This document shows, in pieces, positions 4,254 through 61,592 of a DNA stretch of 64,000 bases. The DNA is from an uncultured Verrucomicrobiota bacterium (lineage in GTDB: Bacteria > Verrucomicrobiota > Kiritimatiellia > JAAZAB01): assembly GCA_964486075.1 (NCBI GenBank), contig CAZALU010000001.1, positions 207-64,206 on the forward strand. The letters run 5' to 3'. The notes under the pieces are model-generated. The model had not been told where the DNA came from. It worked only from the letters and a program-made list of their open reading frames with translations, and did not search any database. Every line of letters begins with the position of its first letter. Position 1 is the stretch's first letter. Made by a program: the position numbers and the translations under genes.

Positions 4254-4286
4254 TTGACACCCGAATAAGATAGTAATAGATTACTA
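4254..4286 (+). promoter_or_regulatory. Sigma70 promoter with overlapping palindromic operator (putative TetR site)
   Basis: TTGACA at 4254; inverted repeat TAGTAAT-AG-ATTACTA at 4271-4286 directly upstream of the TetR start. Confidence 0.65.
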
Positions 4287-4289
4287 ACT

Positions 4290-4904
4290 ATGAAAGACAA
4301 GAAATCACACCAACGCCTTCGGGCGTATGAGCGCAAAAGGGTGACGGTCCAAGCCATCATCGAGCTGGCAGCAGAGCAGAACCCCGCCGAAATCACCACC
4401 ACGGCCATGGCCGAACGCATGCACATAACCCAAGGTGCGCTGTTCCGGCATTTCGCCAGCAAGGATGCAATCTGGCAGGAAGTTATGAAATGGGTAGCCG
4501 CTAATTTGATGGCGCGCCTGGACACGGCTGCGCAGATGGCGAAATCGCCTCTCAAAGCCTTGGAGGCAGTCTTCCTGGCCCATATTGATTTCGTGGTTCA
4601 GTACACCGGCGTGCCGCGCATATTATTCGGAGAACTCCAACGCGCCGCTGATAGCCCGGCCAAACGCGTAGTACGCACGCTGCTCGCCCAGTACGGCAAA
4701 CGCCTGCAAACGCTCATCGAACAAGGCAAAGCGCAGGGTGAATTGACGCCCGAGCTCGATATCGAAACCGCTGCAACGTTGTTCATTGGAACGATTCAAG
4801 GCTTGATCATACAGTCATTGCTAACCGGGCAAAGCGGGAGTGTGCGAGCGCAGGCACCCAAGGTCTTCGCTATATACCTCCGCGGCATAAGGAGAGTGCG
4901 ATGA
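4290..4904 (+). CDS. TetR/AcrR family transcriptional regulator
   Basis: HTH signature ITTTAMAERMHITQGALFRHFASKDAIW. Confidence 0.92.
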   Translation: MKDKKSHQRLRAYERKRVTVQAIIELAAEQNPAEITTTAMAERMHITQGALFRHFASKDAIWQEVMKWVAANLMARLDTAAQMAKSPLKALEAVFLAHIDFVVQYTGVPRILFGELQRAADSPAKRVVRTLLAQYGKRLQTLIEQGKAQGELTPELDIETAATLFIGTIQGLIIQSLLTGQSGSVRAQAPKVFAIYLRGIRRVR

Positions 4905-14938: not shown

Positions 14939-17842
14939 TTAGTCCGACCCGATTCCTACGGGGTCATAGCCCTCGCCGCCGAAGGTATGCGTCTGCACTG
15001 CATAGTCGCTGGCCGAGAGCATGCAACCCCACAAGCCATCGGCTTGACGATAAAGGGCGGGATCAGCCTTGCCGTCGCCGTCGAAATCGGCCGGAACCGG
15101 CGCGCAGTCCGGTCCGCCGAATCCGTTCACGAGGAGGGTGGTCGCATAATTGTCAGACGAGAGCCGGAAGCCCCAGGCGCCGTCCGCGGCCCGGTAGCAG
15201 GCAAGATCGGCCTTGCCGTCGCCGTCGTAATCCGCGGGCACCGGGATCGCCCCGACGGCTCCAAATCCGTCGAGGGTGGACACGGTATAGTCGCTTCCCG
15301 AAAGGCCAACGGACCAGATGCCGTCGGCCGCGCGATAGATGGCCGGGTCGGTCTTGCCGTCGCCATCGTAATCCGCGGACACCGGGGTCCAGCCTGGTCC
15401 GCCGAACCCGTTCACAAGGAGGGTGGTCGCATAATTGTCAGACGAGAGCCGGAAGCCCCAGGTGCCGTCCGCGGTCCGGTAGCAGGCCGGATCGGCCTTG
15501 CCATCGCCGTCGTAATCCGCGGGCACTGGGGTCGCGTCGACCGTACCGAATTCGGATAGGGTGGTTGCGGTATAGTTGTTTCCCGAGAAATAGACCGTCC
15601 ATAAGCCGTCGGCCGCGCGATAGGCGGCCGGGTCCATCTTGCCGTCGCCGTCGTAATCCTCGGCCGCCGGAATTTGATCGGGCCGACCGACGATAAGCGA
15701 ACCTGTTTGGGTATAACCGGAAGCGGAGAGGGATACGCCCCAAATGGCTTGTGCCGGATCATAGACGACCGGATCGGCCTTGCCGTCGCCGTCGTAATCT
15801 GCCGCCACGCGTCGCCAGAGCGCGCTCAAGGCATAGGCCCGGCCGCCAGCCAGGGAGCGCGTCACCGCCGCATAAACGGCGCCGGTCGGCGCAACCAGCA
15901 GGCGACCGGCGACCGGTTGAAGACCTGCCAGTAAACTGAATGCGGAATTCAGCACCCGCAGTTGCGGCAGGGGTGTTCCTGCCAGGTTGAGTTCCAGCCG
16001 CCCGCTGCCGGAGCGCGGAATGCGGTACCAGCCGATGATGTCCCCGGACAGCGCGGTATTCGTGGCGCCCGGTGCGGATAGGACCGGCAGGGTTTCGACT
16101 GGACGAAAATGATTACCCATAAATTTCAGCCGTTCCTCGCCATTAGTTACGGCAGCCTTTAGAGAGCCGCCGTCGTTGCGACCGGCGATAAACGGAAGCG
16201 CCAGATCGTCGTGCGTGGGACCGAACGCAACATCGCAGAAAAATAGGAACCCATTGGTTGCCATGAACGTCGCCGGTTTAACATCGTTTTGTGCCCATGA
16301 GAAGTTGAAGGGGTCGAGGTCGGCGGCGATCCAAGCGGTCTGTGCCCGCTGCATCCATGCCGTCGAGAGCGTCGCCGGTGAGATGCGTTCCCCCATCATC
16401 TGTGTATTCCAATAGCGGCCCTTGTTATTTTTCACCATCAGGAAGAAGTGGCCCGCGACATTGCTGAACGCGATTTGGGCATTCGTGTTGCCTACTGTCC
16501 AAAACCAGCCGTTGGCATGGGGCGTCAGGTTAGTGGCGGTAGGCGTCGGCGAGGTGAAAGGATACATATTTAGCGAGAGGGAGGCGTTCGTGGCCGTGAT
16601 CAGTATCAAACCGGCTTCGCGCGTATAATATCCGGCCAGCCGGTCCCAGGGGAGCGGCGGGTTGGTCACTGCGGGGCTGTCGGGAAACGGCGCGCTGTTG
16701 GTCGGTAGGGGCAGTCCGAATTTATCGCGCAACGCCAGCATTAAGGCGCGCTGGCCGACATTCATGGATGGGGCTCCGCCGTTGGCCAGGACAGCTACGC
16801 CGAGGCCGTGTTCCGGCATGAACTCCAGATGACTGTGAAAACAAGCACTGTCCCCGCCCTTGTAGCAGGCCCGGCCGGCGTAGGCCAGCGCGGGGTCGGC
16901 CACGTTGTCCCAGCCGAGGCCGTTCCGGGTATTGGGGTCTGAGGAGGCGATGGCCGTGTTGGTGCCCTGGAACGTCAGCATGGCCGCCAGGCTATTGGTG
17001 TCCAGGAAGCGCCGGCCGCGGAACAGGCCGTTTCCCAACAACATTTCGAGCGCCCGGCCCATGTCGTTGGCCGAGGAATAAATTCCCCCGCTGGCATGGA
17101 CATTGACGATTTCGTCCGGATAGGAGTTTGTGCCGATCATGGAACGGGCCAGCTTATCGCCGAACATATTTGCGACGGTCTGGAACGCCGTGTTCGTCAT
17201 CTCAAGGGGTTGGAACACATCGGCGGCCGCCTGGGCCACAAAGGTGGTTCCACTGAGCGCCGCCACCACGCTTTCCATCAGGGTGAAACCGTTGTTGTTA
17301 TAGGTATCCGAAAAGTTCGGAGGCCACACGGGATATTCGTCCGCCAGGCCCTCCAGCACTTCCACCCCGAAGCGCGGATCGGGGACCGTCGTCTGCGCAT
17401 AGGGGATATAGTCGCCCGGCAGGCCGCTCTGGTGGTTCATCAACAGGCGGGGTGTAATGAGTGCGGCGCCGGGGAACCGGGCCTTGAACCCGAACGTCGG
17501 CACATAGTTCGTCACCGGCGTGTCTAAATCCAATTTGCCCCGATCCACTTGGCGGAAGGCTGCCAGGGCGGTGAAAGTTTTCGAAACGCTGGCGATGCCA
17601 TAGATGGTATCCGCATTGGCCTTTCGGCCTTCGAGCGGATCGGCCAGGCCGAATCCCTCCGCCCATACTACCTGAGTGCCGTCCACCAGGACCAGCGCCA
17701 GACTCGAGGCGCCGGTTGCCTGGAGCTGGTTGGTGATATAGGGTGAAAGCTCCCGGATCGTGGCGCTGTAATCTGTGGCAGAATATGTCAGGCTTGGCGT
17801 TAGCAGGAACAGGCAACAGCCAACGAGCAGCGATTGTTTCAT
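14939..17842 (-). CDS. Secreted serine hydrolase (beta-lactamase class C/peptidase S12) with C-terminal FG-GAP-like repeats
   Basis: Signal peptide; IASVSKTFT (SxxK), RLLMNHQSGL, YNNNGF (YxN); six ADYDGDGKxDP-type repeats at the C-terminus. Confidence 0.88.
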   Translation of the reverse strand: MKQSLLVGCCLFLLTPSLTYSATDYSATIRELSPYITNQLQATGASSLALVLVDGTQVVWAEGFGLADPLEGRKANADTIYGIASVSKTFTALAAFRQVDRGKLDLDTPVTNYVPTFGFKARFPGAALITPRLLMNHQSGLPGDYIPYAQTTVPDPRFGVEVLEGLADEYPVWPPNFSDTYNNNGFTLMESVVAALSGTTFVAQAAADVFQPLEMTNTAFQTVANMFGDKLARSMIGTNSYPDEIVNVHASGGIYSSANDMGRALEMLLGNGLFRGRRFLDTNSLAAMLTFQGTNTAIASSDPNTRNGLGWDNVADPALAYAGRACYKGGDSACFHSHLEFMPEHGLGVAVLANGGAPSMNVGQRALMLALRDKFGLPLPTNSAPFPDSPAVTNPPLPWDRLAGYYTREAGLILITATNASLSLNMYPFTSPTPTATNLTPHANGWFWTVGNTNAQIAFSNVAGHFFLMVKNNKGRYWNTQMMGERISPATLSTAWMQRAQTAWIAADLDPFNFSWAQNDVKPATFMATNGFLFFCDVAFGPTHDDLALPFIAGRNDGGSLKAAVTNGEERLKFMGNHFRPVETLPVLSAPGATNTALSGDIIGWYRIPRSGSGRLELNLAGTPLPQLRVLNSAFSLLAGLQPVAGRLLVAPTGAVYAAVTRSLAGGRAYALSALWRRVAADYDGDGKADPVVYDPAQAIWGVSLSASGYTQTGSLIVGRPDQIPAAEDYDGDGKMDPAAYRAADGLWTVYFSGNNYTATTLSEFGTVDATPVPADYDGDGKADPACYRTADGTWGFRLSSDNYATTLLVNGFGGPGWTPVSADYDGDGKTDPAIYRAADGIWSVGLSGSDYTVSTLDGFGAVGAIPVPADYDGDGKADLACYRAADGAWGFRLSSDNYATTLLVNGFGGPDCAPVPADFDGDGKADPALYRQADGLWGCMLSASDYAVQTHTFGGEGYDPVGIGSD
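15124..15530 (-). repeat. Intragenic ~285-bp-period duplication within the FG-GAP-like region
   Basis: CGTTCAC(G/A)AGGAGGGTGGTCGCATAATTGTCAGACGAGAGCCGGAAGCCCC at 15124 and 15409. Confidence 0.85.
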
Positions 17843-30349: not shown

Positions 30350-30580
30350 TTTGGAAAATAAATTATTCGCGAAAAGAGTACGGAAGTTCGTGAAAATCGG
30401 ACACGGTCGCGCCGCTGTGACCGGCTATCATCTTTCTCCGAGCGTATAGCGTTTCGCAGAAAGTGACCACTTCTCCGCCAAAGGGCGGGCTGTGGCGAAC
30501 CCTCATTAGCCACTGCGAGCTGCAAGGCAAGCGGGAAGGCGAGGGCGAGGATTGAAGCCGGAAGTCAGAAGACGTTTCTT
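30350..30580 (+). ncRNA. Cobalamin (AdoCbl) riboswitch
   Basis: AAGAGTACGGAAGTTCGTGAAAATCGGACACGGTCGCGCCGCTGTGA 5' core, GCCACTG...GGGAAGGC B12 box, 3' GCCGGAAGTCAGAAGAC. Confidence 0.85.
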
Positions 30581-30661
30581 TTCATGCTCATTAAAGCAAC
30601 GGTTGACAGCCGTTTTGACTCCTGCGCTTGAAAGGAGGAAATGAGGACATACATCGTCTTC

Positions 30662-33188: not shown

Positions 33189-34949
33189 ATGAAATCAAAG
33201 TTAAAGTTGGTGCTGGGCTTATGCCTGGTAACGTTCGCTACACAAACGTTCGCCATGGTCATAGGCGGTAGTAATTATTTAGTGCAAACATTTTACGAGA
33301 ACCCGCACGCAGGCGAAACGTTGGTGGCGTTTGACTGGGGTGACAATAACAACCTATACTACTCGACCGGGCGACCGGATTGGGGATTGGGATTATCCAT
33401 TTACCGGTACGATGGCGCCACGGCATTGAAGCTGTACACGGATGAGAACGCGTTCGCCGGAAGCCGTGTGACCGTGATCGGCGGCCGTATTTACTTCAAC
33501 GACGGCGGGACATATGACCGTTGGACTTGCGACTACTACCGCTATGACCCGGTGCACCCGTCCGCGCCGGTGAATATAGGCGTGCTGAGCGACATCAGTG
33601 GACTTGAGACGCGCACCGGAACCGATTTTTGGGCCGCAGGTGGCTGGAACGCCGCGATCTATTATAGTACTCTGAATGCGGATGGCGATCTGCTGAGCAA
33701 CCCGTTGGTGAATCTCGGCACGATCGGGAACGCAAGCGGTCCGATCGTTTTTGATAAGGATGGCAATCTCTACTACGTGGAAGGCTATGTCGCAGAGGGC
33801 AAGCCAACCGTGTACCGCTGGAGCGCCGCGGAAGTAGCCGCGGCCATCGCCGACCCCGCGGGTAATCCGTTGAGCCCGGACGGCCATACATGGGCGTCCC
33901 TGTCATCGGGCGATGGAGCCTCCGGCATGGTGGTGGACAACAAGGGGCACTTGGTGGTTACTGCGACGTCGTTCACTGATCCCAGCCAGTTACAGCGTCT
34001 GTTCGTGACCAACGGCATCTACGCAGGCTATGAGGTGCTGGCCCGTTCGGACGAGCGCCTGGAATCCGTCCGTTTGCGCGCCGGCAGAATCTACGTCAGT
34101 TCTTCCGCAGGAATATGCGCCGTTCTCCCCATGCAGGCGGATACCCACGTTATTAACGACTATGACTATGACGGCAAGTCTGACCTGGCGGTTTACCGGG
34201 CCGGCTATTGGTCCATCTATTCCCTGGAGAACGGCATTATCCTTAACAACGTTGGCGTTTGGGGAGAGTCGGATTCCATTGCGGTGCCGGGAGATTATGA
34301 CGGCGACGGCAAGGCTGATCTGGCGGTTTACCGGGCCGGCTATTGGTCCGTCTATTCCTTGACGAACGGTATTATCCTCGATAACGCCGGGATATGGGGC
34401 GAAGCGAACTCTATTCCGGTGCCGGGAGATTATGACGGCGATGGCAAGTCTGACCTGGCCTTGTATCGCGACGGCATTTGGTCCATCTACATGATGGGTA
34501 GCGGTGAGACCCTCTCCGGCCCCTTTGGCGAAGCGGGCTGCACGCCGGTGCCGGGGGATTATGACGGCGATGGCAAGGCCGACCTAGCCTTGTATCGCGA
34601 CGGCATTTGGTCCATCTACATGATGGGCAGCGGAGATATCCTCTCCGGCCCCTTTGGCGAAGCGGGCTGCACGCCGGTGCCGGGAGATTATGACGGCGAT
34701 GGCAAGTCTGACCTGGCCTTGTATCGCGACGGCATTTGGTCCATCTATATGATGGGTAGCGGTGAGACCCTCTCCGGCCCCTTCGGCGAAGCGGGCTGCA
34801 CGCCGGTGCCGGGGGATTATGACGGCGACGGCAAATCCGATCTGGCCTTGTATCGTGACGGTTATTGGGCCATCCGTTCCCTGAAGAGCGGCGTGATCCT
34901 CGACGCTGCCGGGGAGTGGGGCGGGCCAGACTCCGTTCCGGTTAAGTAG
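33189..34949 (+). CDS. Secreted protein with probable beta-propeller N-terminus and C-terminal FG-GAP-like repeats
   Basis: SD CAGGAG, signal peptide, blade-like motifs (IVFDKDGNLYYVE, MVVDNKGHLVVT), six DYDxDGKxDLA repeats. Confidence 0.8.
   Translation: MKSKLKLVLGLCLVTFATQTFAMVIGGSNYLVQTFYENPHAGETLVAFDWGDNNNLYYSTGRPDWGLGLSIYRYDGATALKLYTDENAFAGSRVTVIGGRIYFNDGGTYDRWTCDYYRYDPVHPSAPVNIGVLSDISGLETRTGTDFWAAGGWNAAIYYSTLNADGDLLSNPLVNLGTIGNASGPIVFDKDGNLYYVEGYVAEGKPTVYRWSAAEVAAAIADPAGNPLSPDGHTWASLSSGDGASGMVVDNKGHLVVTATSFTDPSQLQRLFVTNGIYAGYEVLARSDERLESVRLRAGRIYVSSSAGICAVLPMQADTHVINDYDYDGKSDLAVYRAGYWSIYSLENGIILNNVGVWGESDSIAVPGDYDGDGKADLAVYRAGYWSVYSLTNGIILDNAGIWGEANSIPVPGDYDGDGKSDLALYRDGIWSIYMMGSGETLSGPFGEAGCTPVPGDYDGDGKADLALYRDGIWSIYMMGSGDILSGPFGEAGCTPVPGDYDGDGKSDLALYRDGIWSIYMMGSGETLSGPFGEAGCTPVPGDYDGDGKSDLALYRDGYWAIRSLKSGVILDAAGEWGGPDSVPVK
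34426..34860 (+). repeat. Intragenic 129-bp (43-aa) tandem repeat, about 3.3 near-identical units
   Basis: GDYDGDGK(S/A)DLALYRDGIWSIYMMGSG(E/D)(T/I)LSGPFGEAGCTPVP at a 129-nt period. Confidence 0.9.
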
Positions 34950-35182: not shown

Positions 35183-38104
35183 ATGTGTAACACATCAACT
35201 AATAGCGTTACGTTGCCGGCCAGGCGTGTCCATGTCATTGCCTGCGGCGTGCTCGCGCTGGATATCAATGCCATCGTGAAGCGGCTGGGTCTTGAGGTGA
35301 CCGTGACGTTTCTGCCGGGCGGCTTGCACAATAACCCTCGCGAATTGCAGACGCGTCTGCAACGCGCGGTGGACGATGCGTCCGCCAACGGCAGCAGCGA
35401 TCTGATCGCCATCGGCTATGGCGTGTGCGGACGTGGAACCGTAGGCCTGCGGGCGGGCGCCGTGCCGCTGGCCATTCCGCTGGTGCATGACTGCATCGCG
35501 CTCTTTCTGGGATCCGACCGGGCCTATAGCGAACAATTCGCCAAATATCCCGGCACCTACTATGTCTCCGCCGGCTGGGTCGATGAGAAAGTACGTCCAT
35601 GGAGTGCGCAGGAGCAGGAAACCGCCGAATGCCGCAGCCCCATCGAATACGATTTCGAACGGCTGGTGTGCCAGTATGGCCAGGAGCACGCGCAGGCCAT
35701 TCGGGAATTCGTCACCAGTTGGCATCGTAATTACCAGCGCGCCGCTTTCATTGACACTGGCGAACAGTCGGTCCGCCGCGCGCGCTACGCGGGCATGGCG
35801 CAGGCCATGGCCGCTGAATTCGGCTGGAAATACGAAGAAATCTCCGGCACACACGAGCTGCTGACGCAGTTGCTCACGACCCAGGAGTCCAGCGATAGCA
35901 TTCTAATCGTGCCGCCGGGGCATATGACGATCTACGATGGCGTACGTCGGCGGATGCGAGCAGTCCCCGTGCAGGAGTGCGCGGAAGCGCCGCCCGAGCC
36001 GACCCTGCTGGTGTATGACGAGCCGCCAAAGCGCGAGATTAAACCCCGGCAGGAAATGGTGCGCCTCGGGATGGGCATCGACGCCGGCGGAACCTACACG
36101 GACATCGTCATCTACGATTTTGAGAGCCGGTCCGTTCTGCAGAAGGCCAAAAGCCTCACGACGCCGTGGGATTATGCGATCGGGATCAATACCGCGCTTG
36201 ACCGGATCGATGGCAAACGATTCGCACAGGTTGACTTGATCTCTGTTTCCACAACTTTGGCCACCAATGCTATTGTGGAGGGGCGCGGCCAAAAAGTGGG
36301 ACTGCTGCTCATGCCGCCCTATGGCTGGCGCGACCCGGAAAATTTCACGCACAACCTGATCGCGCTCATCGCAGGGCAGCTCGCAATTGACGGCCGAGAA
36401 CTGGCGGCGGTTGATCCCGACCAGGTGCGGCGCTCCGTGCGCGATATGCTGGAGCGTCAGGGCGTCAAGGCCCTGGCCGTGGCGGGCTATGCCAGCCACG
36501 TCAATCCCTCCCACGAGATGCAAGTCAAGGCGGCAATCCGCCAGGTGACCGATTGCGTCGCGACCTGCGCGCATGAGGTCTGCGGGGGCATGGATTATCG
36601 CATTCGCGCCGAGACAGCCGTTCTCAACGCGCAGATTATTCCTTGTCTCGAAGCGTTTCTTGCCAAGCTGCAGAGCACCCTCCAGTGCCGCGGGCTGAAT
36701 GCGCCCGTTATGGTCGTTAAGAGCGACGGCTCCCTAATGAGCCTTGAGGCCGCGTGCCAACGCCCGATCGAGACGATTCTCTCCGGGCCCGCCGCCAGCG
36801 CGACCGGGGCCGGCTACCTCACAGGCCTGCCCGAGGCGATCATCGTTGACATCGGCGGCACAACGACCGACACGGCGACGATCCGCGGCGGGGCAGTCCG
36901 AACCTGTGCTGACGGCGCCACGGTGGGTCGATGGAAGACAAACGTCGAGGCCCTGGATATGCGCACGCTCGGTTTGGGAGGCGACAGCCAGATAGCCTGC
37001 GTCGAGGGCAAACTGCGAATTGGTCCGCAACGTGTAGCGTCGGTCGCGTGGCTTGCGAGCCAGCACCCGCGAACAGGCGAAGCGTTAATGTGGTTGGAGC
37101 ATCACCTGAACCACTTTATAGTGGCCACGCGGGGCATGGAGCTGCTGACCCTCACGCCATACAGGCACCGTCGCCTGCATGACCAATCGGAAAAGCGCGT
37201 TGTGGAAATTCTGAAGGAGCGCCCCTACTCGGTGGACGAATTGATCGAACGCACACAATGCATGGCCGAACATTTCCTGCCGTTGGGAGTGTTGGAGGAA
37301 GACCACATCATTCAGCGCTGCGGCCTGACGCCGACGGATCTGTTACATGCCGCCGGCCGGCTGGACCTGTGGGATGCCGATGCCTCGCGCCGACTGTGCG
37401 ATATGTACGCCTGCCTGATGCGCCTGGATCGGGCCCGTTTTATCGAACAGGGACAAGACCACTTCGTGCGTCTGTTGGCGCTTGAGCTGCTGAAGAAACA
37501 GCTTGCCGACGAGATTGACCCGGAGACGATTGAAACGTCGCCAGCCGCCATGGCCCTGATTGACAGGGCCTTGAGCGGGGAGAGCGACGGGTATAGCGTG
37601 CAAATCACGTTGAAGGCACCCGTGATCGGCATCGGCGCCCCGGCCCATTTCTTCCTGCCGGAGGCGGCGCGACTTTTGCGTGCCGAGGCCATCATTCCGG
37701 CTCACGCCGACGTCGCCAACGCCGTCGGCGCCATCACCAGTCTCGTGCGGATTCACCGCTCCGTAACAATTGCCGTTGATGAAAAGGGCCTCTACCGCTT
37801 GGAGGGCCTGCCGGAAACGCCCAGCTTCGGTAACATCGAGGCCGCGCAGGAGTTTGCCGTCGAACAATTGCGGAATATGGTTAAAAATCTAGGCCGCCAG
37901 GCAGGAACCGCCGCCTTGAAGGTAGAGGTTCGGATCAATGACCGCATGGGCTCACTGAAGGATGGTCAGCAGCTATTCCTTGGACGCACGGTGGCTGCCT
38001 GCCTGACCGGACGTCCGGCCTTGGCCCGCTTGGGCGCGACGCCTGATGCCGCGCCATCGGCATCTTTCCGACAAGGTGCGGATGATGGCACCGCAGGCGT
38101 TTAG
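35183..38104 (+). CDS. DUF1638 domain fused to a hydantoinase/oxoprolinase (ASKHA) domain
   Basis: N-terminus VIACGVL..GLHNNP..GYGVCG..HDCIALFLGS..GTYYVSAGW; C-terminus GIDAGGTYTD, TILSGPAAS, VDIGGTTTD, NAVGA. Confidence 0.85.
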   Translation: MCNTSTNSVTLPARRVHVIACGVLALDINAIVKRLGLEVTVTFLPGGLHNNPRELQTRLQRAVDDASANGSSDLIAIGYGVCGRGTVGLRAGAVPLAIPLVHDCIALFLGSDRAYSEQFAKYPGTYYVSAGWVDEKVRPWSAQEQETAECRSPIEYDFERLVCQYGQEHAQAIREFVTSWHRNYQRAAFIDTGEQSVRRARYAGMAQAMAAEFGWKYEEISGTHELLTQLLTTQESSDSILIVPPGHMTIYDGVRRRMRAVPVQECAEAPPEPTLLVYDEPPKREIKPRQEMVRLGMGIDAGGTYTDIVIYDFESRSVLQKAKSLTTPWDYAIGINTALDRIDGKRFAQVDLISVSTTLATNAIVEGRGQKVGLLLMPPYGWRDPENFTHNLIALIAGQLAIDGRELAAVDPDQVRRSVRDMLERQGVKALAVAGYASHVNPSHEMQVKAAIRQVTDCVATCAHEVCGGMDYRIRAETAVLNAQIIPCLEAFLAKLQSTLQCRGLNAPVMVVKSDGSLMSLEAACQRPIETILSGPAASATGAGYLTGLPEAIIVDIGGTTTDTATIRGGAVRTCADGATVGRWKTNVEALDMRTLGLGGDSQIACVEGKLRIGPQRVASVAWLASQHPRTGEALMWLEHHLNHFIVATRGMELLTLTPYRHRRLHDQSEKRVVEILKERPYSVDELIERTQCMAEHFLPLGVLEEDHIIQRCGLTPTDLLHAAGRLDLWDADASRRLCDMYACLMRLDRARFIEQGQDHFVRLLALELLKKQLADEIDPETIETSPAAMALIDRALSGESDGYSVQITLKAPVIGIGAPAHFFLPEAARLLRAEAIIPAHADVANAVGAITSLVRIHRSVTIAVDEKGLYRLEGLPETPSFGNIEAAQEFAVEQLRNMVKNLGRQAGTAALKVEVRINDRMGSLKDGQQLFLGRTVAACLTGRPALARLGATPDAAPSASFRQGADDGTAGV

Positions 38105-38255
38105 AGCGGAGGCGGGAAACCCTTTGGGCGTTCCCGCCCTACAATTCAGAATAAAGGTCGCTCCGTTGCAGGGCGATAAGCTTCAGAGCGGAGGCGGGAA
38201 ACCCTTTGGGCGTTCCCGCCCTACAATTCAGAATAAAGGTCGCTCCGTTGCAGGG
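38103..38255. repeat. Tandem duplication of a 71-bp REP-like hairpin unit (82-bp period)
   Basis: Identical units 38103-38173 and 38185-38255 containing GGCGGGAAACCCTTTGGGCGTTCCCGCC, between convergent genes. Confidence 0.9.
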
Positions 38256-52986: not shown

Positions 52987-53101
52987 AACTCTAATCGGGA
53001 TAATAACGAAGCTAAATATTTTTCTGGCTGCCAGCCTGAATAATTCATCAAAAGAAAATTATTCGACCAGTTCAAGAGCTTGAGCTAAAATGTATTGTGA
53101 T

Positions 53102-53341
53102 ACCTGAATTTTGCGTCGAGACGGCGCAAAATTCACCCCAAGGTCCGCCACGTGAGTCACGTTTCACGTACCAACGCGGTCACGTGATGATGGCCGCGTA
53201 AAACGCGGCCAAACGGGGTTAACCACGTTAGTTTCGAAAGCAACCCAACGGGTTATTTTCGAAACTGCACGTCTTTCGCCAGCGGGCAATGCCCGCTTAG
53301 GCGAAAGTGAATATTGCACGATAATCGTGCAATATTCAGGT
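53102..53341. mobile_element. 240-bp multi-hairpin MITE-like element, copy 1
   Basis: Terminal inverted repeats ACCTGAATTTTGC / GCAATATTCAGGT, GAT on both flanks, highly similar to 60619-60857. Confidence 0.7.
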
Positions 53342-53754
53342 GATAAAAACCGTGAGCTTCAACCTCAAAAAATATACTATAAACAAACAGGATTTTACAA
53401 CTGTAAATTGGCATGGTCCAGCCATTCAGCCATTCGCATTATGGCCTGCGCCTCCTGCCGCCTTGTGCGACGAGAGCGACAGATTGGCTGGAAAGGGGCA
53501 CTTTTTTCAGCCAATCTCTTCACCCGTGACGCAAGGGCGCGAGAATCTAAGGCGCGCTAAGGCCCGCAACTCAGGGTAGCGCAGGGTTAATCCCTGCGAT
53601 CTTGGTTTTATATAACGGTTTAGCGTGGATAAGCTAAAGGCCATAATGCAATTGCTGTACGGTTATGATTGATTGGAGCAGGGGAAGTTCTTATGATTTC
53701 AAATTGACTCGTTTTAAAAGGCTTCGTACCCAGCGCCGAAAGGACTGCGCCGTG

Positions 53755-60535: not shown

Positions 60536-60618
60536 GGTGCTTCCTGTGGGAAAGGGTTGCTGAATGAATTGCCTCGGATAATAGCTGAGCGCGTCCTGAT
60601 AGACAAATATAAATTATT

Positions 60619-60857
60619 ACCTGAATTTTGCGCCGAGCCGGCGCAAAATTCACCAAAGGGCCGCCACGTGAGTCACGCTTCACGGGTCAACGCGGTCACA
60701 TGATGATGGCCGCGTAAAACGCGGTCAAACGGGGTTAACCACATTAGTTGCGATAATAATCCAACGGGTTATTATTGAAACTTAACGTCTTTCGCCAGCT
60801 GGCAATGCTTGCTTAGGAGAAAGTGAATATTGCACGATGATCGTGCAATATTCAGGT
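60619..60857. mobile_element. 239-bp multi-hairpin MITE-like element, copy 2
   Basis: Same termini and hairpin series as 53102-53341; no target duplication visible. Confidence 0.7.
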
Positions 60858-61592
60858 GTGATCCAAATCCACGATCAGCCGCAGGGCCTGGTGCGCCGCC
60901 AGCAGGCCGAAGAGGCCGGTCATGTACGGCAGGCTGCCGATCGGCCGGTGCGGGCGGCCCTTGACGAACGTGTCCGGCTCCTCTGTCCCGACCGGTGCCG
61001 CCTTGTTCCGGGCCGGCTCCAGCGAGTAGATGCAGGTCACGCCCCGCTCGATGCCGTGCCGGCGCAGTTTCTTGCGGATGAACCGGGCCAGTGGGCAGAT
61101 CTCAGTCTCGGAAATGTCGCCTACGCGCACCGCCAGCGGATCCGTGCGCGTCGCCGCGCCCATGCTGGCGATGACTTTCAGTCCACCCCGCACGGCCGTC
61201 GCGATCAGCGCGACCTTGGGCGAGACGCTGTCAATGGCGTCGATGACCACGTCCAGGGGGCCGGTTAGCAAGGCTGTTGCGTTGGCTTCCTCGATAAACA
61301 CCTGGTGGGTTTCCACCCGGCAGGCAGGGTTGATGTCCAGCACCCGCGCCCGGGCGACATCGGTCTTCGGCCGGTTGAGGGTGGACTCCAGGGCGTAGAG
61401 CTGGCGGTTGAAGTTGCTCGGGTGGATGGTGTCGCAATCCACCAGGCGCAGGTAGCCGACGCCGGCGCGGGCCATGGCCTCAACGGCATAGGAGCCGACC
61501 GCGCCCAGGCCGAACACGGCCACGCGGGCGGCGGCCAGCTTCGCCAGCGCTTCGCGGCCCAGCAGTTGCTCAATGCGGCAAAATCGGTTCAT
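60852..61592 (-). CDS. tcdA: tRNA threonylcarbamoyladenosine dehydratase (ThiF/TcdA family)
   Basis: VFGLGAVGS, VDCDTIHPSNFNRQ, DAIDS, SMGAA, PLARFIRKKLR, YSLE, GSLPYMTG. Confidence 0.88.
   Translation of the reverse strand: MNRFCRIEQLLGREALAKLAAARVAVFGLGAVGSYAVEAMARAGVGYLRLVDCDTIHPSNFNRQLYALESTLNRPKTDVARARVLDINPACRVETHQVFIEEANATALLTGPLDVVIDAIDSVSPKVALIATAVRGGLKVIASMGAATRTDPLAVRVGDISETEICPLARFIRKKLRRHGIERGVTCIYSLEPARNKAAPVGTEEPDTFVKGRPHRPIGSLPYMTGLFGLLAAHQALRLIVDLDHT

Follow-up and report, generated by a model that had tools for sequence, protein, structure and literature searches.

A hairpin-rich MITE of uncultured Verrucomicrobiota, probably mobilized in trans by an IS1380-type transposase

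Two copies of a dispersed element of about 240 bp in an uncultured Verrucomicrobiota genome, which an initial annotation described as an unnamed MITE or a structured ncRNA family, are almost certainly those of a transposon. We analyzed them in a window of 64,000 nucleotides (contig CAZALU010000001.1) together with related copies from other genomes. The explanation that best accounts for the whole, and one that we consider highly probable, is a non-autonomous MITE moved by an IS1380-type transposase acting in trans, with a chain of hairpins constrained at the level of the DNA or of the element. The three claims differ in strength: transposition is the firmest, the link to the IS1380 family is likely, and the constraint on the hairpins, the weakest of the three, is put forward tentatively. 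As far as could be found, the element represents a new, undescribed family, though as selfish DNA it is of an ordinary type; literature searches turned up nothing specific on MITEs in Verrucomicrobia or Kiritimatiellia, nor on IS1380-derived MITEs.

Alignment and folding bear out the two copies, their terminal inverted repeats, and the hairpin at each end. The edges of copy 1 were placed by alignment to copy 2 and 28 full-length relatives and were set by a 5-bp duplication and by a flanking base that co-varies with the target; the true ends of the element are CCTGRATWTTGC...GCAAWATYCAGG, and the interval given earlier (53102-53341) begins with an A and finishes with a T that are duplicated target, not element. 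The GAT previously noted to either side of copy 1 was confirmed, but the duplication in full is the 5-bp TGATA. The copies and their immediate surroundings are as follows.

53103-53340, plus strand: MITE copy 1, 238 bp, the "240-nt" variant with module M1
53098-53102, no strand: left target-site duplication of copy 1, TGATA, equal to 53341-53345; fits T-NNN-A
53341-53345, no strand: right target-site duplication of copy 1, TGATA, identical to the left one
60620-60856, plus strand: MITE copy 2, 237 bp, same orientation and variant as copy 1
60852-60854, minus strand: TGA stop codon of a ThiF/MoeB-like open reading frame (ORF), inside the right terminal repeat of copy 2 (CC-TGA-AT)

Aligned over their full length, the copies differ at 26 positions (~89% identity), and the flanks outside them are unrelated to each other. 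As the initial annotation stated, TGAATWTTGC occurs four times per copy; the resulting 8 occurrences in the window compare with 0.45 expected, and none of 100 shuffles reaches 8. Copy 2 is the more decayed and has no target duplication, with TATTA (60615-60619) on one side and TGTGA (60857-60861) on the other, in unrelated flanks. Each of these is target-like and the two are mutually unrelated, as recombination between two insertions would leave them, and we infer that the duplication was probably lost by recombination between two copies.

Both copies are sited among housekeeping genes (ORF list and Pfam) and would be old insertions into intergenic DNA: copy 1 separates a TlyA-like methyltransferase gene from a TerC gene, the two being divergent, and copy 2 has an hpt-like gene on one side and a ThiF/MoeB-like gene on the other. 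The latter ORF (60852-61592, minus strand; ORF list, with a Pfam ThiF match) has a 3' end reading ...GAT CAC ACC TGA, with the last codon straddling the copy 2 junction. Because the stop codon falls within the terminal repeat, the insertion rewrote the 3' end of this gene, an example of how such insertions can reshape genes. ORFs inside the element are spurious ones of 51 to 53 amino acids. Upstream of terC, 53 nt (53442-53494) are 92% identical to positions 643-695 of locus L231 from MAG CAZVVD01 and thus constitute a conserved non-coding sequence. An Rfam search over 53330-53700 returned nothing, and the Mn (yybP-ykoY) riboswitch that a TerC gene might have upstream was not detected there.

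At either end the element forms a hairpin of 31 nt, with further hairpins chained in between. In copy 1 the parts are laid out as follows.

53103-53135, plus strand: left terminal hairpin, formed by the left terminal inverted repeat CCTGAATTTTGC and its inner inverted copy (arms TGAATTTTGC at 53105-53114 and GCAAAATTCA at 53126-53135)
53148-53187, plus strand: optional module M1, CCACGTGAGTCACG...GGTCACGTGA, with repeated CACGT motifs
53191-53211, plus strand: hairpin H2, GGCCGCG / CGCGGCC
53212-53229, plus strand: hairpin H3, AACGGGG..CCACGTT
53230-53266, plus strand: hairpin H4, the long stem quoted in the initial annotation, 15 pairs, 5 of them changed on both sides
53273-53307, plus strand: hairpin H5, CTTTCGCCAGCGGGC / GCCCGCTTAGGCGAAAG, from individual folds
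53308-53340, plus strand: right terminal hairpin (TGAATATTGC at 53308-53317 and GCAATATTCA at 53329-53338)

The right terminal hairpin closes with the right terminal inverted repeat, ...GCAATATTCAGG, and a near-invariant palindrome, GGTTAACC (53217-53224), occupies the center of H3. Across the family the element is non-coding, ranges from 188 to 271 bp with ~80 to 85% of its bases paired, and falls into three size classes: a core of ~200 bp; the core plus M1, of ~240 bp, to which both window copies belong; and a class of ~270 bp that adds a module, M2, in the loop of H3. Module M1 is accordingly carried by the 240- and 270-nt variants and missing from the 200-nt variants (alignment columns 47-86, A2/A3). 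Solo hairpins of 34 to 35 bp, consisting of the two terminal repeats alone, also occur (L210, with TCTCA; L055, with TATCA), and all three size variants and the solo hairpins have their own 5-bp duplications. The solo hairpin in L055 reads as a left hairpin joined to the last bases of a right end, so it may have arisen in place, through a deletion between the repeated arms, and not by a separate insertion. On its 2.9-kb contig, a 389-bp segment occurs twice at 100% identity (98-486 and 710-1098), adjoining the solo hairpin and a full MITE; this duplication may be real or an assembly artifact. A further solo hairpin (L204, 5460-5546) lies at a contig end, where one flank is the exact reverse complement of the other; this pattern most likely stems from a fold-back artifact of assembly, and the copy was left out of the duplication count.

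A perfect 5-bp target-site duplication flanks 29 of 32 copies, and two more are off by a single base. The target conforms to T-NNN-A in 25 of the 29 perfect duplications; among reconstructed targets, T precedes the triplet in 24 of 28 copies and A follows it in 27 of 28. A delimitation with a 3-bp duplication and ACC...GGT ends was considered and overturned by this target logo and by four co-varying exceptions. In these copies (L055, L035, L193, and L200) the outermost base is not the usual A or T and instead equals the flanking base on the opposite side; it is therefore target DNA and not element, which makes the duplication 5 bp and the ends CC...GG. The terminal inverted repeat CCTGRATWTTGC stands at both ends, with positions 1, 2, 4, 6, 10, 11, and 12 invariant in the 32 copies and CC at the start of all 64 ends. 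Together with copy number, lack of coding sequence, empty and filled sites, and the lack of an Rfam match, these features support the reading as an unnamed MITE. A DDE transposase supplied in trans would recognize the terminal inverted repeats of 12 to 14 bp and cut with a 5-bp stagger at T-NNN-A in AT-rich intergenic DNA, and insertion would duplicate those 5 bp.

Empty and filled versions of one target could be compared within a second dispersed repeat of MAG CAZVVD01. The repeat is uninterrupted (...GAGAAGGTGTGAAAAAATT...) in L219, L092, and L086 and is filled, with TGTGA duplicated, by a 270-nt element in L215, by 200-nt elements in L221 and L229, and by an element in the opposite orientation in L207. 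That different variants and orientations occupy the same TGTGA indicates independent insertions into a hot spot. The empty sites obtained are thus paralogous; for the two window copies no orthologous empty site was obtained, including by a search for the empty-site pattern in metagenome contigs, and conserved gene order in the nearest genomes (L113-L116) is too fragmentary to yield one. The second repeat itself is ~250 nt long (...CTGCGTGACTGAGAAGGTGTGAAAAAATTATCTGAAGACGGTCGCGACGGAGCGCGACCCTCC...GGCCACGTTTCATCGTGGCCGTCCGATTTTTT), contains several hairpins, has an end resembling a terminator, and matches no Rfam family. It is found at L219 ~4255-4500, L092 673-807, and L086 52-240, flanks the MITEs at L215 2353-2623, L221 1493-1692, L229 3016-3215, and L207, occurs also in L095, and has a weak copy at L113 9743-9898.

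Beyond the window the family is far larger than two copies. When 185,579 species genomes were scanned for exact matches to a strict pattern, the terminal repeat plus its inner arm, 82 stretches were returned, almost all in Verrucomicrobiota MAGs: ~26 in CAZVVD01, ~28 in JAHIJO01, and smaller numbers in five or six further Verrucomicrobiota MAGs and Kiritimatiellia, with a few in Lentisphaerae and Planctomycetia, where the terminal hairpin occurs on its own. Many of the stretches are located at contig ends. The genome nearest to the window is JAHIJO01, whose H+-pyrophosphatase is 89% identical; gene order is not conserved. A looser hairpin pattern without the terminal ACC matched mostly unrelated hairpins (Acinetobacter, Clostridia, and others) and also revealed related copies in several Verrucomicrobiota MAGs. 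No MITE copies were present in the viral contigs scanned, and the subfamily patterns had no match in metagenome contigs. A profile search with nhmmer gave 76 non-overlapping placements, 30 of them full length and many of the others cut by contig ends, as is typical of repeats at which assemblies break. Partial interior copies (L045, L108, and others) proved to be truncated MITEs beside ordinary genes, e.g., frr, and not ends of insertion sequences. In two public samples, short contigs whose HPRT and TlyA are identical to those of the window end inside the element. Breaks within it are seen in contigs from two MAGs and from the population to which the window belongs. The MITE fragments assemblies of these poorly known uncultured Verrucomicrobiota and Kiritimatiellia, and a model of it could be used to mask or scaffold such genomes and to avoid spurious ORF or RNA gene calls.

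We next considered the fold. Copy 1 as single-stranded DNA folds at -83.7 kcal/mol (z = -14.0 versus shuffles), and copy 2 as RNA at -97.7 kcal/mol (z = -7.6 versus shuffles). A consensus fold built from 15 diverse copies has 65 pairs in nine helices, with 98.0% of cells paired (86.1% in shuffles), 24 of the 65 pairs changed on both sides (at most 6 with slid partners), and a covariation score of 0.318 (0.105 in shuffles). Double-sided changes account for 111 cells, compared with ~8 G-U cells. Compensatory change affects 4 of 12 pairs in the left terminal hairpin and 6 of 9 pairs in H2, all of whose cells are paired. The stems of H2, H4, and H5 differ in sequence among the CAZVVD, JAHIJO, and Kiritimatiellia subfamilies, which are ~50 to 60% identical as judged by eye in the alignment, and the order and size of the hairpins are kept; the H5 stem, for instance, is wholly different in the JAHIJO and Kiritimatiellia subfamilies. 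The short linkers and GGTTAACC are nearly invariant across the family.

This evidence puts the compensatory changes reported in the initial annotation on a different footing. Between the two window copies alone the case is weak: of 21 differences in stems, 17 abolish the pair in copy 2, and the stem pair quoted for H4 is truly compensated at one pair only. Once copies from other genomes are added, preservation of the stems despite substitution becomes convincing. Selection on the fold, as the annotation proposed, is plausible in light of the strong covariation across subfamilies, but individual copies decay, and repair templated by the hairpins could mimic it. Within subfamilies, substitutions private to one copy are less frequent in stems than in loops by a factor of 2.7, and 41 of the 51 that fall in stems break pairing. 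A chain maintained in transposing lineages and decaying in single insertions would result from a constraint that acts on the element or its DNA, for example, through compact folding or binding of the transposase or a host factor, with hairpin-templated repair as a helper. The lower mutation of stems also points to some constraint or repair after insertion, and a host-level role would fit as well; the stem/loop difference could thus come from any of three sources: selection acting on the lineage that transposes, repair templated by the hairpins, or use by the host.

The most serious competing account of the compensatory changes is mutational. Intra-strand template switching in replication or repair, an established mechanism by which quasi-palindromes are corrected, copies one arm of a hairpin onto the other and so leaves palindromes perfect, and we regard it as a possible, though not the probable, source of the pattern. 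It would explain why double-sided Watson-Crick changes so outnumber G-U cells, with few intermediates, and it agrees with the symmetry of the two strands, with the fact that every stem is a local hairpin, and with the lower mutation of stems even in presumably neutral insertions. Repair alone is insufficient, however, where whole stems have been swapped for unrelated sequence while hairpin position, length, and order are kept, and the 41 unpaired private changes remain uncorrected.

A further reading, which we consider doubtful, takes the chain of hairpins not for a by-product but for a nucleic-acid device with a function of its own. Such a device could take three forms. It could be a folded DNA scaffold that an IS1380/piggyBac-related transposase needs to pair both ends, in which case the invariant palindrome GGTTAACC would be a protein-binding site; it could be a bidirectionally active RNA structure adopted by the host, e.g., as a transcript stabilizer or insulator; or the solo hairpins of 34 to 35 bp, each flanked by a 5-bp duplication of its own, may move independently, which, if true, would place them among the smallest transposable DNAs known.

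Under the preferred reading of a MITE constrained at the level of the DNA or of the element, we asked which transposase could have moved it. IS1380 family transposases (PF13701, DDE_Tnp_1_4) are bacterial relatives of piggyBac, and among bacterial insertion sequence families, ends starting with CC combined with a duplication of 4 to 5 bp are the IS1380 signature. On an Enterococcus plasmid, IS1678 reads directly as CCTGAATAATTCATAC...GAATTATTCAGG with GATAG, a 5-bp duplication, on both sides. The MITE repeats share 10 to 11 of 16 nucleotides with those of IS1678, including the first 7 to 8, and at the right end of the MITE the first eight are the same (CCTGAATA). The ends of ISEcp1, read from plasmid pC15-1a (CCTAGATTCTACGT and CCTAAATTCCACGT), are identical to the MITE repeats at 6 to 11 of 16 positions, and an ISEcp1 duplication, TCATA/TATGA, also fits T-NNN-A. 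Duplications of 5 bp have been described for ISEcp1 (PMC2887853) and, with inverted repeats of 16/13 bp, for IS1247 of Paracoccus halophilus (PMC3281130). Because its ends start with CC, share an 8-nt terminus with IS1678, form a short inverted repeat, and produce a 5-bp duplication, the MITE is likely to be mobilized by a transposase of this family, an assignment made from DNA features.

The resemblance is to the ends of these elements rather than to their bodies. The MITE and the IS1380 family (IS1678 of Enterococcus faecium, ISEcp1, IS1247) have in common CC termini, inverted repeats of ~13 to 16 bp, and 5-bp duplications. IS1380 elements measure ~1.65 kb and carry a PF13701 gene, whereas the MITE spans 200 to 270 bp without a transposase gene; in the MITE, an inner inverted copy extends each end into a hairpin, and the interior is a hairpin chain. 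Its hosts are PVC bacteria, unlike those of the IS1380 members compared.

Searches with the family HMM and tblastn uncovered no IS1380-like ORF in the window, in agreement with the initial annotation, nor in ~130 MITE-bearing loci. No element of 1.5 to 1.7 kb between MITE repeats (CCTGAATWTTGC) was found, no paired ends 0.7 to 3.5 kb apart occurred in the fetched loci, and an all-against-all megablast of the loci showed no repeated segment of insertion sequence size in the MITE-bearing MAGs. Since MAGs recover insertion sequences poorly, absence of an autonomous partner is weak evidence. Two candidate parents had end-like 13-mers at the spacing of an insertion sequence, but these are chance matches: the one at L091 63-1453 encodes a large unrelated protein, and the one at L031 1248-2409 encodes Csy-like proteins. 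A PF13701 transposase remnant lies within a 1336-amino-acid ORF of a Verrucomicrobiota MAG (L189, 3397-4104) and represents the only IS1380 family lineage seen in such a MAG. The inverted repeats of this lineage are C(C)TAAGCCGGAACGATG, and full relatives of the remnant (L254, L256) are ~1.5 kb long with inverted repeats C(C)TAAGCCGGAACGATGCAGTTGAAA; these different inverted repeats rule out the lineage (full copies L254-L256) as the parent of the MITE.

Another DDE family that makes 5-bp duplications (Tn3-derived TIMEs, the IS2 group, Tn402/Tn7-like elements, or an undescribed one) is an unlikely source. The repeats of Tn3 elements and TIMEs are 38 bp long and start with GGGG, and IS2, Tn7, and Tn402 start with TG. 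The MITE ends differ from these: they begin with CCTGAAT, exactly as in IS1678, and the repeats are 12 to 14 bp long, as in IS1247 and ISEcp1. In favor of such a source are the failure to find a cognate transposase and the fact that 5-bp duplications are not unique to IS1380 but are made by the Tn3 family too (PMC2887853, PMC4133298). TIMEs do resemble the MITE in being non-autonomous and miniature, with 5-bp duplications and mosaic variants (PMC4133298). They nevertheless carry Tn3-type inverted repeats of ~38 bp (PMC4133298, PMC2887853), in contrast to the short, IS1380-type repeats of the MITE, which start with CCTG.

The alternative reading in the initial annotation, a structured ncRNA, is not supported. 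Such a family, an sRNA gene or cis-regulatory untranslated region (UTR) element folding as RNA and either spread by transposition or later exapted, is quite improbable in our estimate, although several observations would suit it: the extreme folding stability, the strong covariation, the 2.7-fold lower mutation of stems within subfamilies, the UTR-like positions of copies near gene ends, and promoter-like hexamers that point inward from either side of copy 1. The pairs are Watson-Crick on both strands, however, with G-U rare in either reading (40 on the plus strand and 93 on the minus strand among ~2,600 pairs, 1 to 4%) and nearly equal mean fold energies (-119.6 kcal/mol on the plus strand and -122.0 kcal/mol on the minus strand). 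Private stem changes show no strand asymmetry (G-U 10, A-C 16), orientation relative to neighboring ORFs is unbiased as far as crude gene calls tell, copy 1 contains no promoter or terminator consensus, loops are not conserved, and much of the pairing is lost in copy 2. No Rfam family matched the window copies or five other family members at gathering score, the best sub-threshold match to the family being MicA (27.5 bits versus a cutoff of 41). Watson-Crick pairing, equal stability of the strands, absence of orientation bias, and absence of an Rfam match thus favor a constraint on the DNA or element, or repair, over a strand-specific RNA, and nothing in these data marks the element as an RNA gene of the host. 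Covariation by itself is not diagnostic of an RNA gene, since palindromic mobile DNA can pass that test.

REP/REPIN-like sequences and IS200/IS605-derived palindromes, which a Y1 (HUH) transposase (RAYT/TnpA) mobilizes in single-stranded form, insert without target duplication and without terminal inverted repeats. Although the MITE is likewise made of hairpins, occurs as solo hairpins of 34 to 35 nt, and recalls BIMEs in its mosaic, modular build, an origin of this kind is extremely improbable given the variable 5-bp duplications of 29 of 32 copies, their perfect terminal repeats, and the absence of the GTAG/CGTC heads typical of REPs (PMC3733652). The likeness to REP, BIME, and REPIN sequences (PMC3733652) is to a short palindromic unit that is extragenic, high in copy number, and found solo or in mosaics; REPs lack terminal repeats and target duplications and are tied to Y1 enzymes, whereas the MITE has both DDE-type signatures.

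Small repeats of other bacteria offer a broader comparison. Correia/NEMIS elements of Neisseria, RUP, ERIC, and BOX are non-coding intergenic repeats of ~100 to 250 bp, often co-transcribed, strongly self-complementary, and modular or variable in size, and the MITE is like them in being small, non-coding, dispersed, self-complementary, and modular. Correia and RUP elements duplicate TA and have repeats of ~26 bp tied to other insertion sequence families, and their fold is mainly one long hairpin formed by both ends. The MITE differs from them in its six to eight local hairpins kept by compensatory change and in its 5-bp duplication. As an undescribed IS1380-tied MITE with an unusually clean T-NNN-A target rule, active size variants built of hairpin modules, and a preserved secondary structure, it offers a convenient system in which to ask what IS1380-type transposases need beyond terminal repeats.

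Related hairpins were also seen outside the family. In a Planctomycetia MAG (CAYHAE01; L015 6955-7200 and L063 42-77), the same terminal hairpin (ACCTGAATTTTGCCAGTGAGCCGGCAAAATTCA) heads a different hairpin chain that is present at least twice, beside tRNA genes, and may be a distant sister family. In two Clostridiales MAGs (JAISCI01 and JAJQCT01), hairpins of the form TGAATWTTGC...GCAAWATTCA are numerous in each genome and are bordered by other bases (e.g., CCGTGAATATTGC), at loci L008, L010, L012, L036, L046, L050, L062, L064, L066, L068, L070, L072, and L112; these apparently form a separate REP-like repeat family.

Elsewhere in the window, two 74-nt direct repeats (38100-38173 and 38182-38255) are 99% identical and 82 nt apart, each with a GC-rich hairpin (GGCGGGAAACCCTTTGGGCGTTCCCGCC). 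Tandem repeats with periods of ~141 nt and ~129 to 135 nt and 60 to 92% identity (15027-15804 and 34128-34942) are probably repeat-domain coding sequence. The only Rfam match at gathering score in the window is a cobalamin riboswitch (RF00174) at 30358-30595 (48 bits, E = 6e-9).
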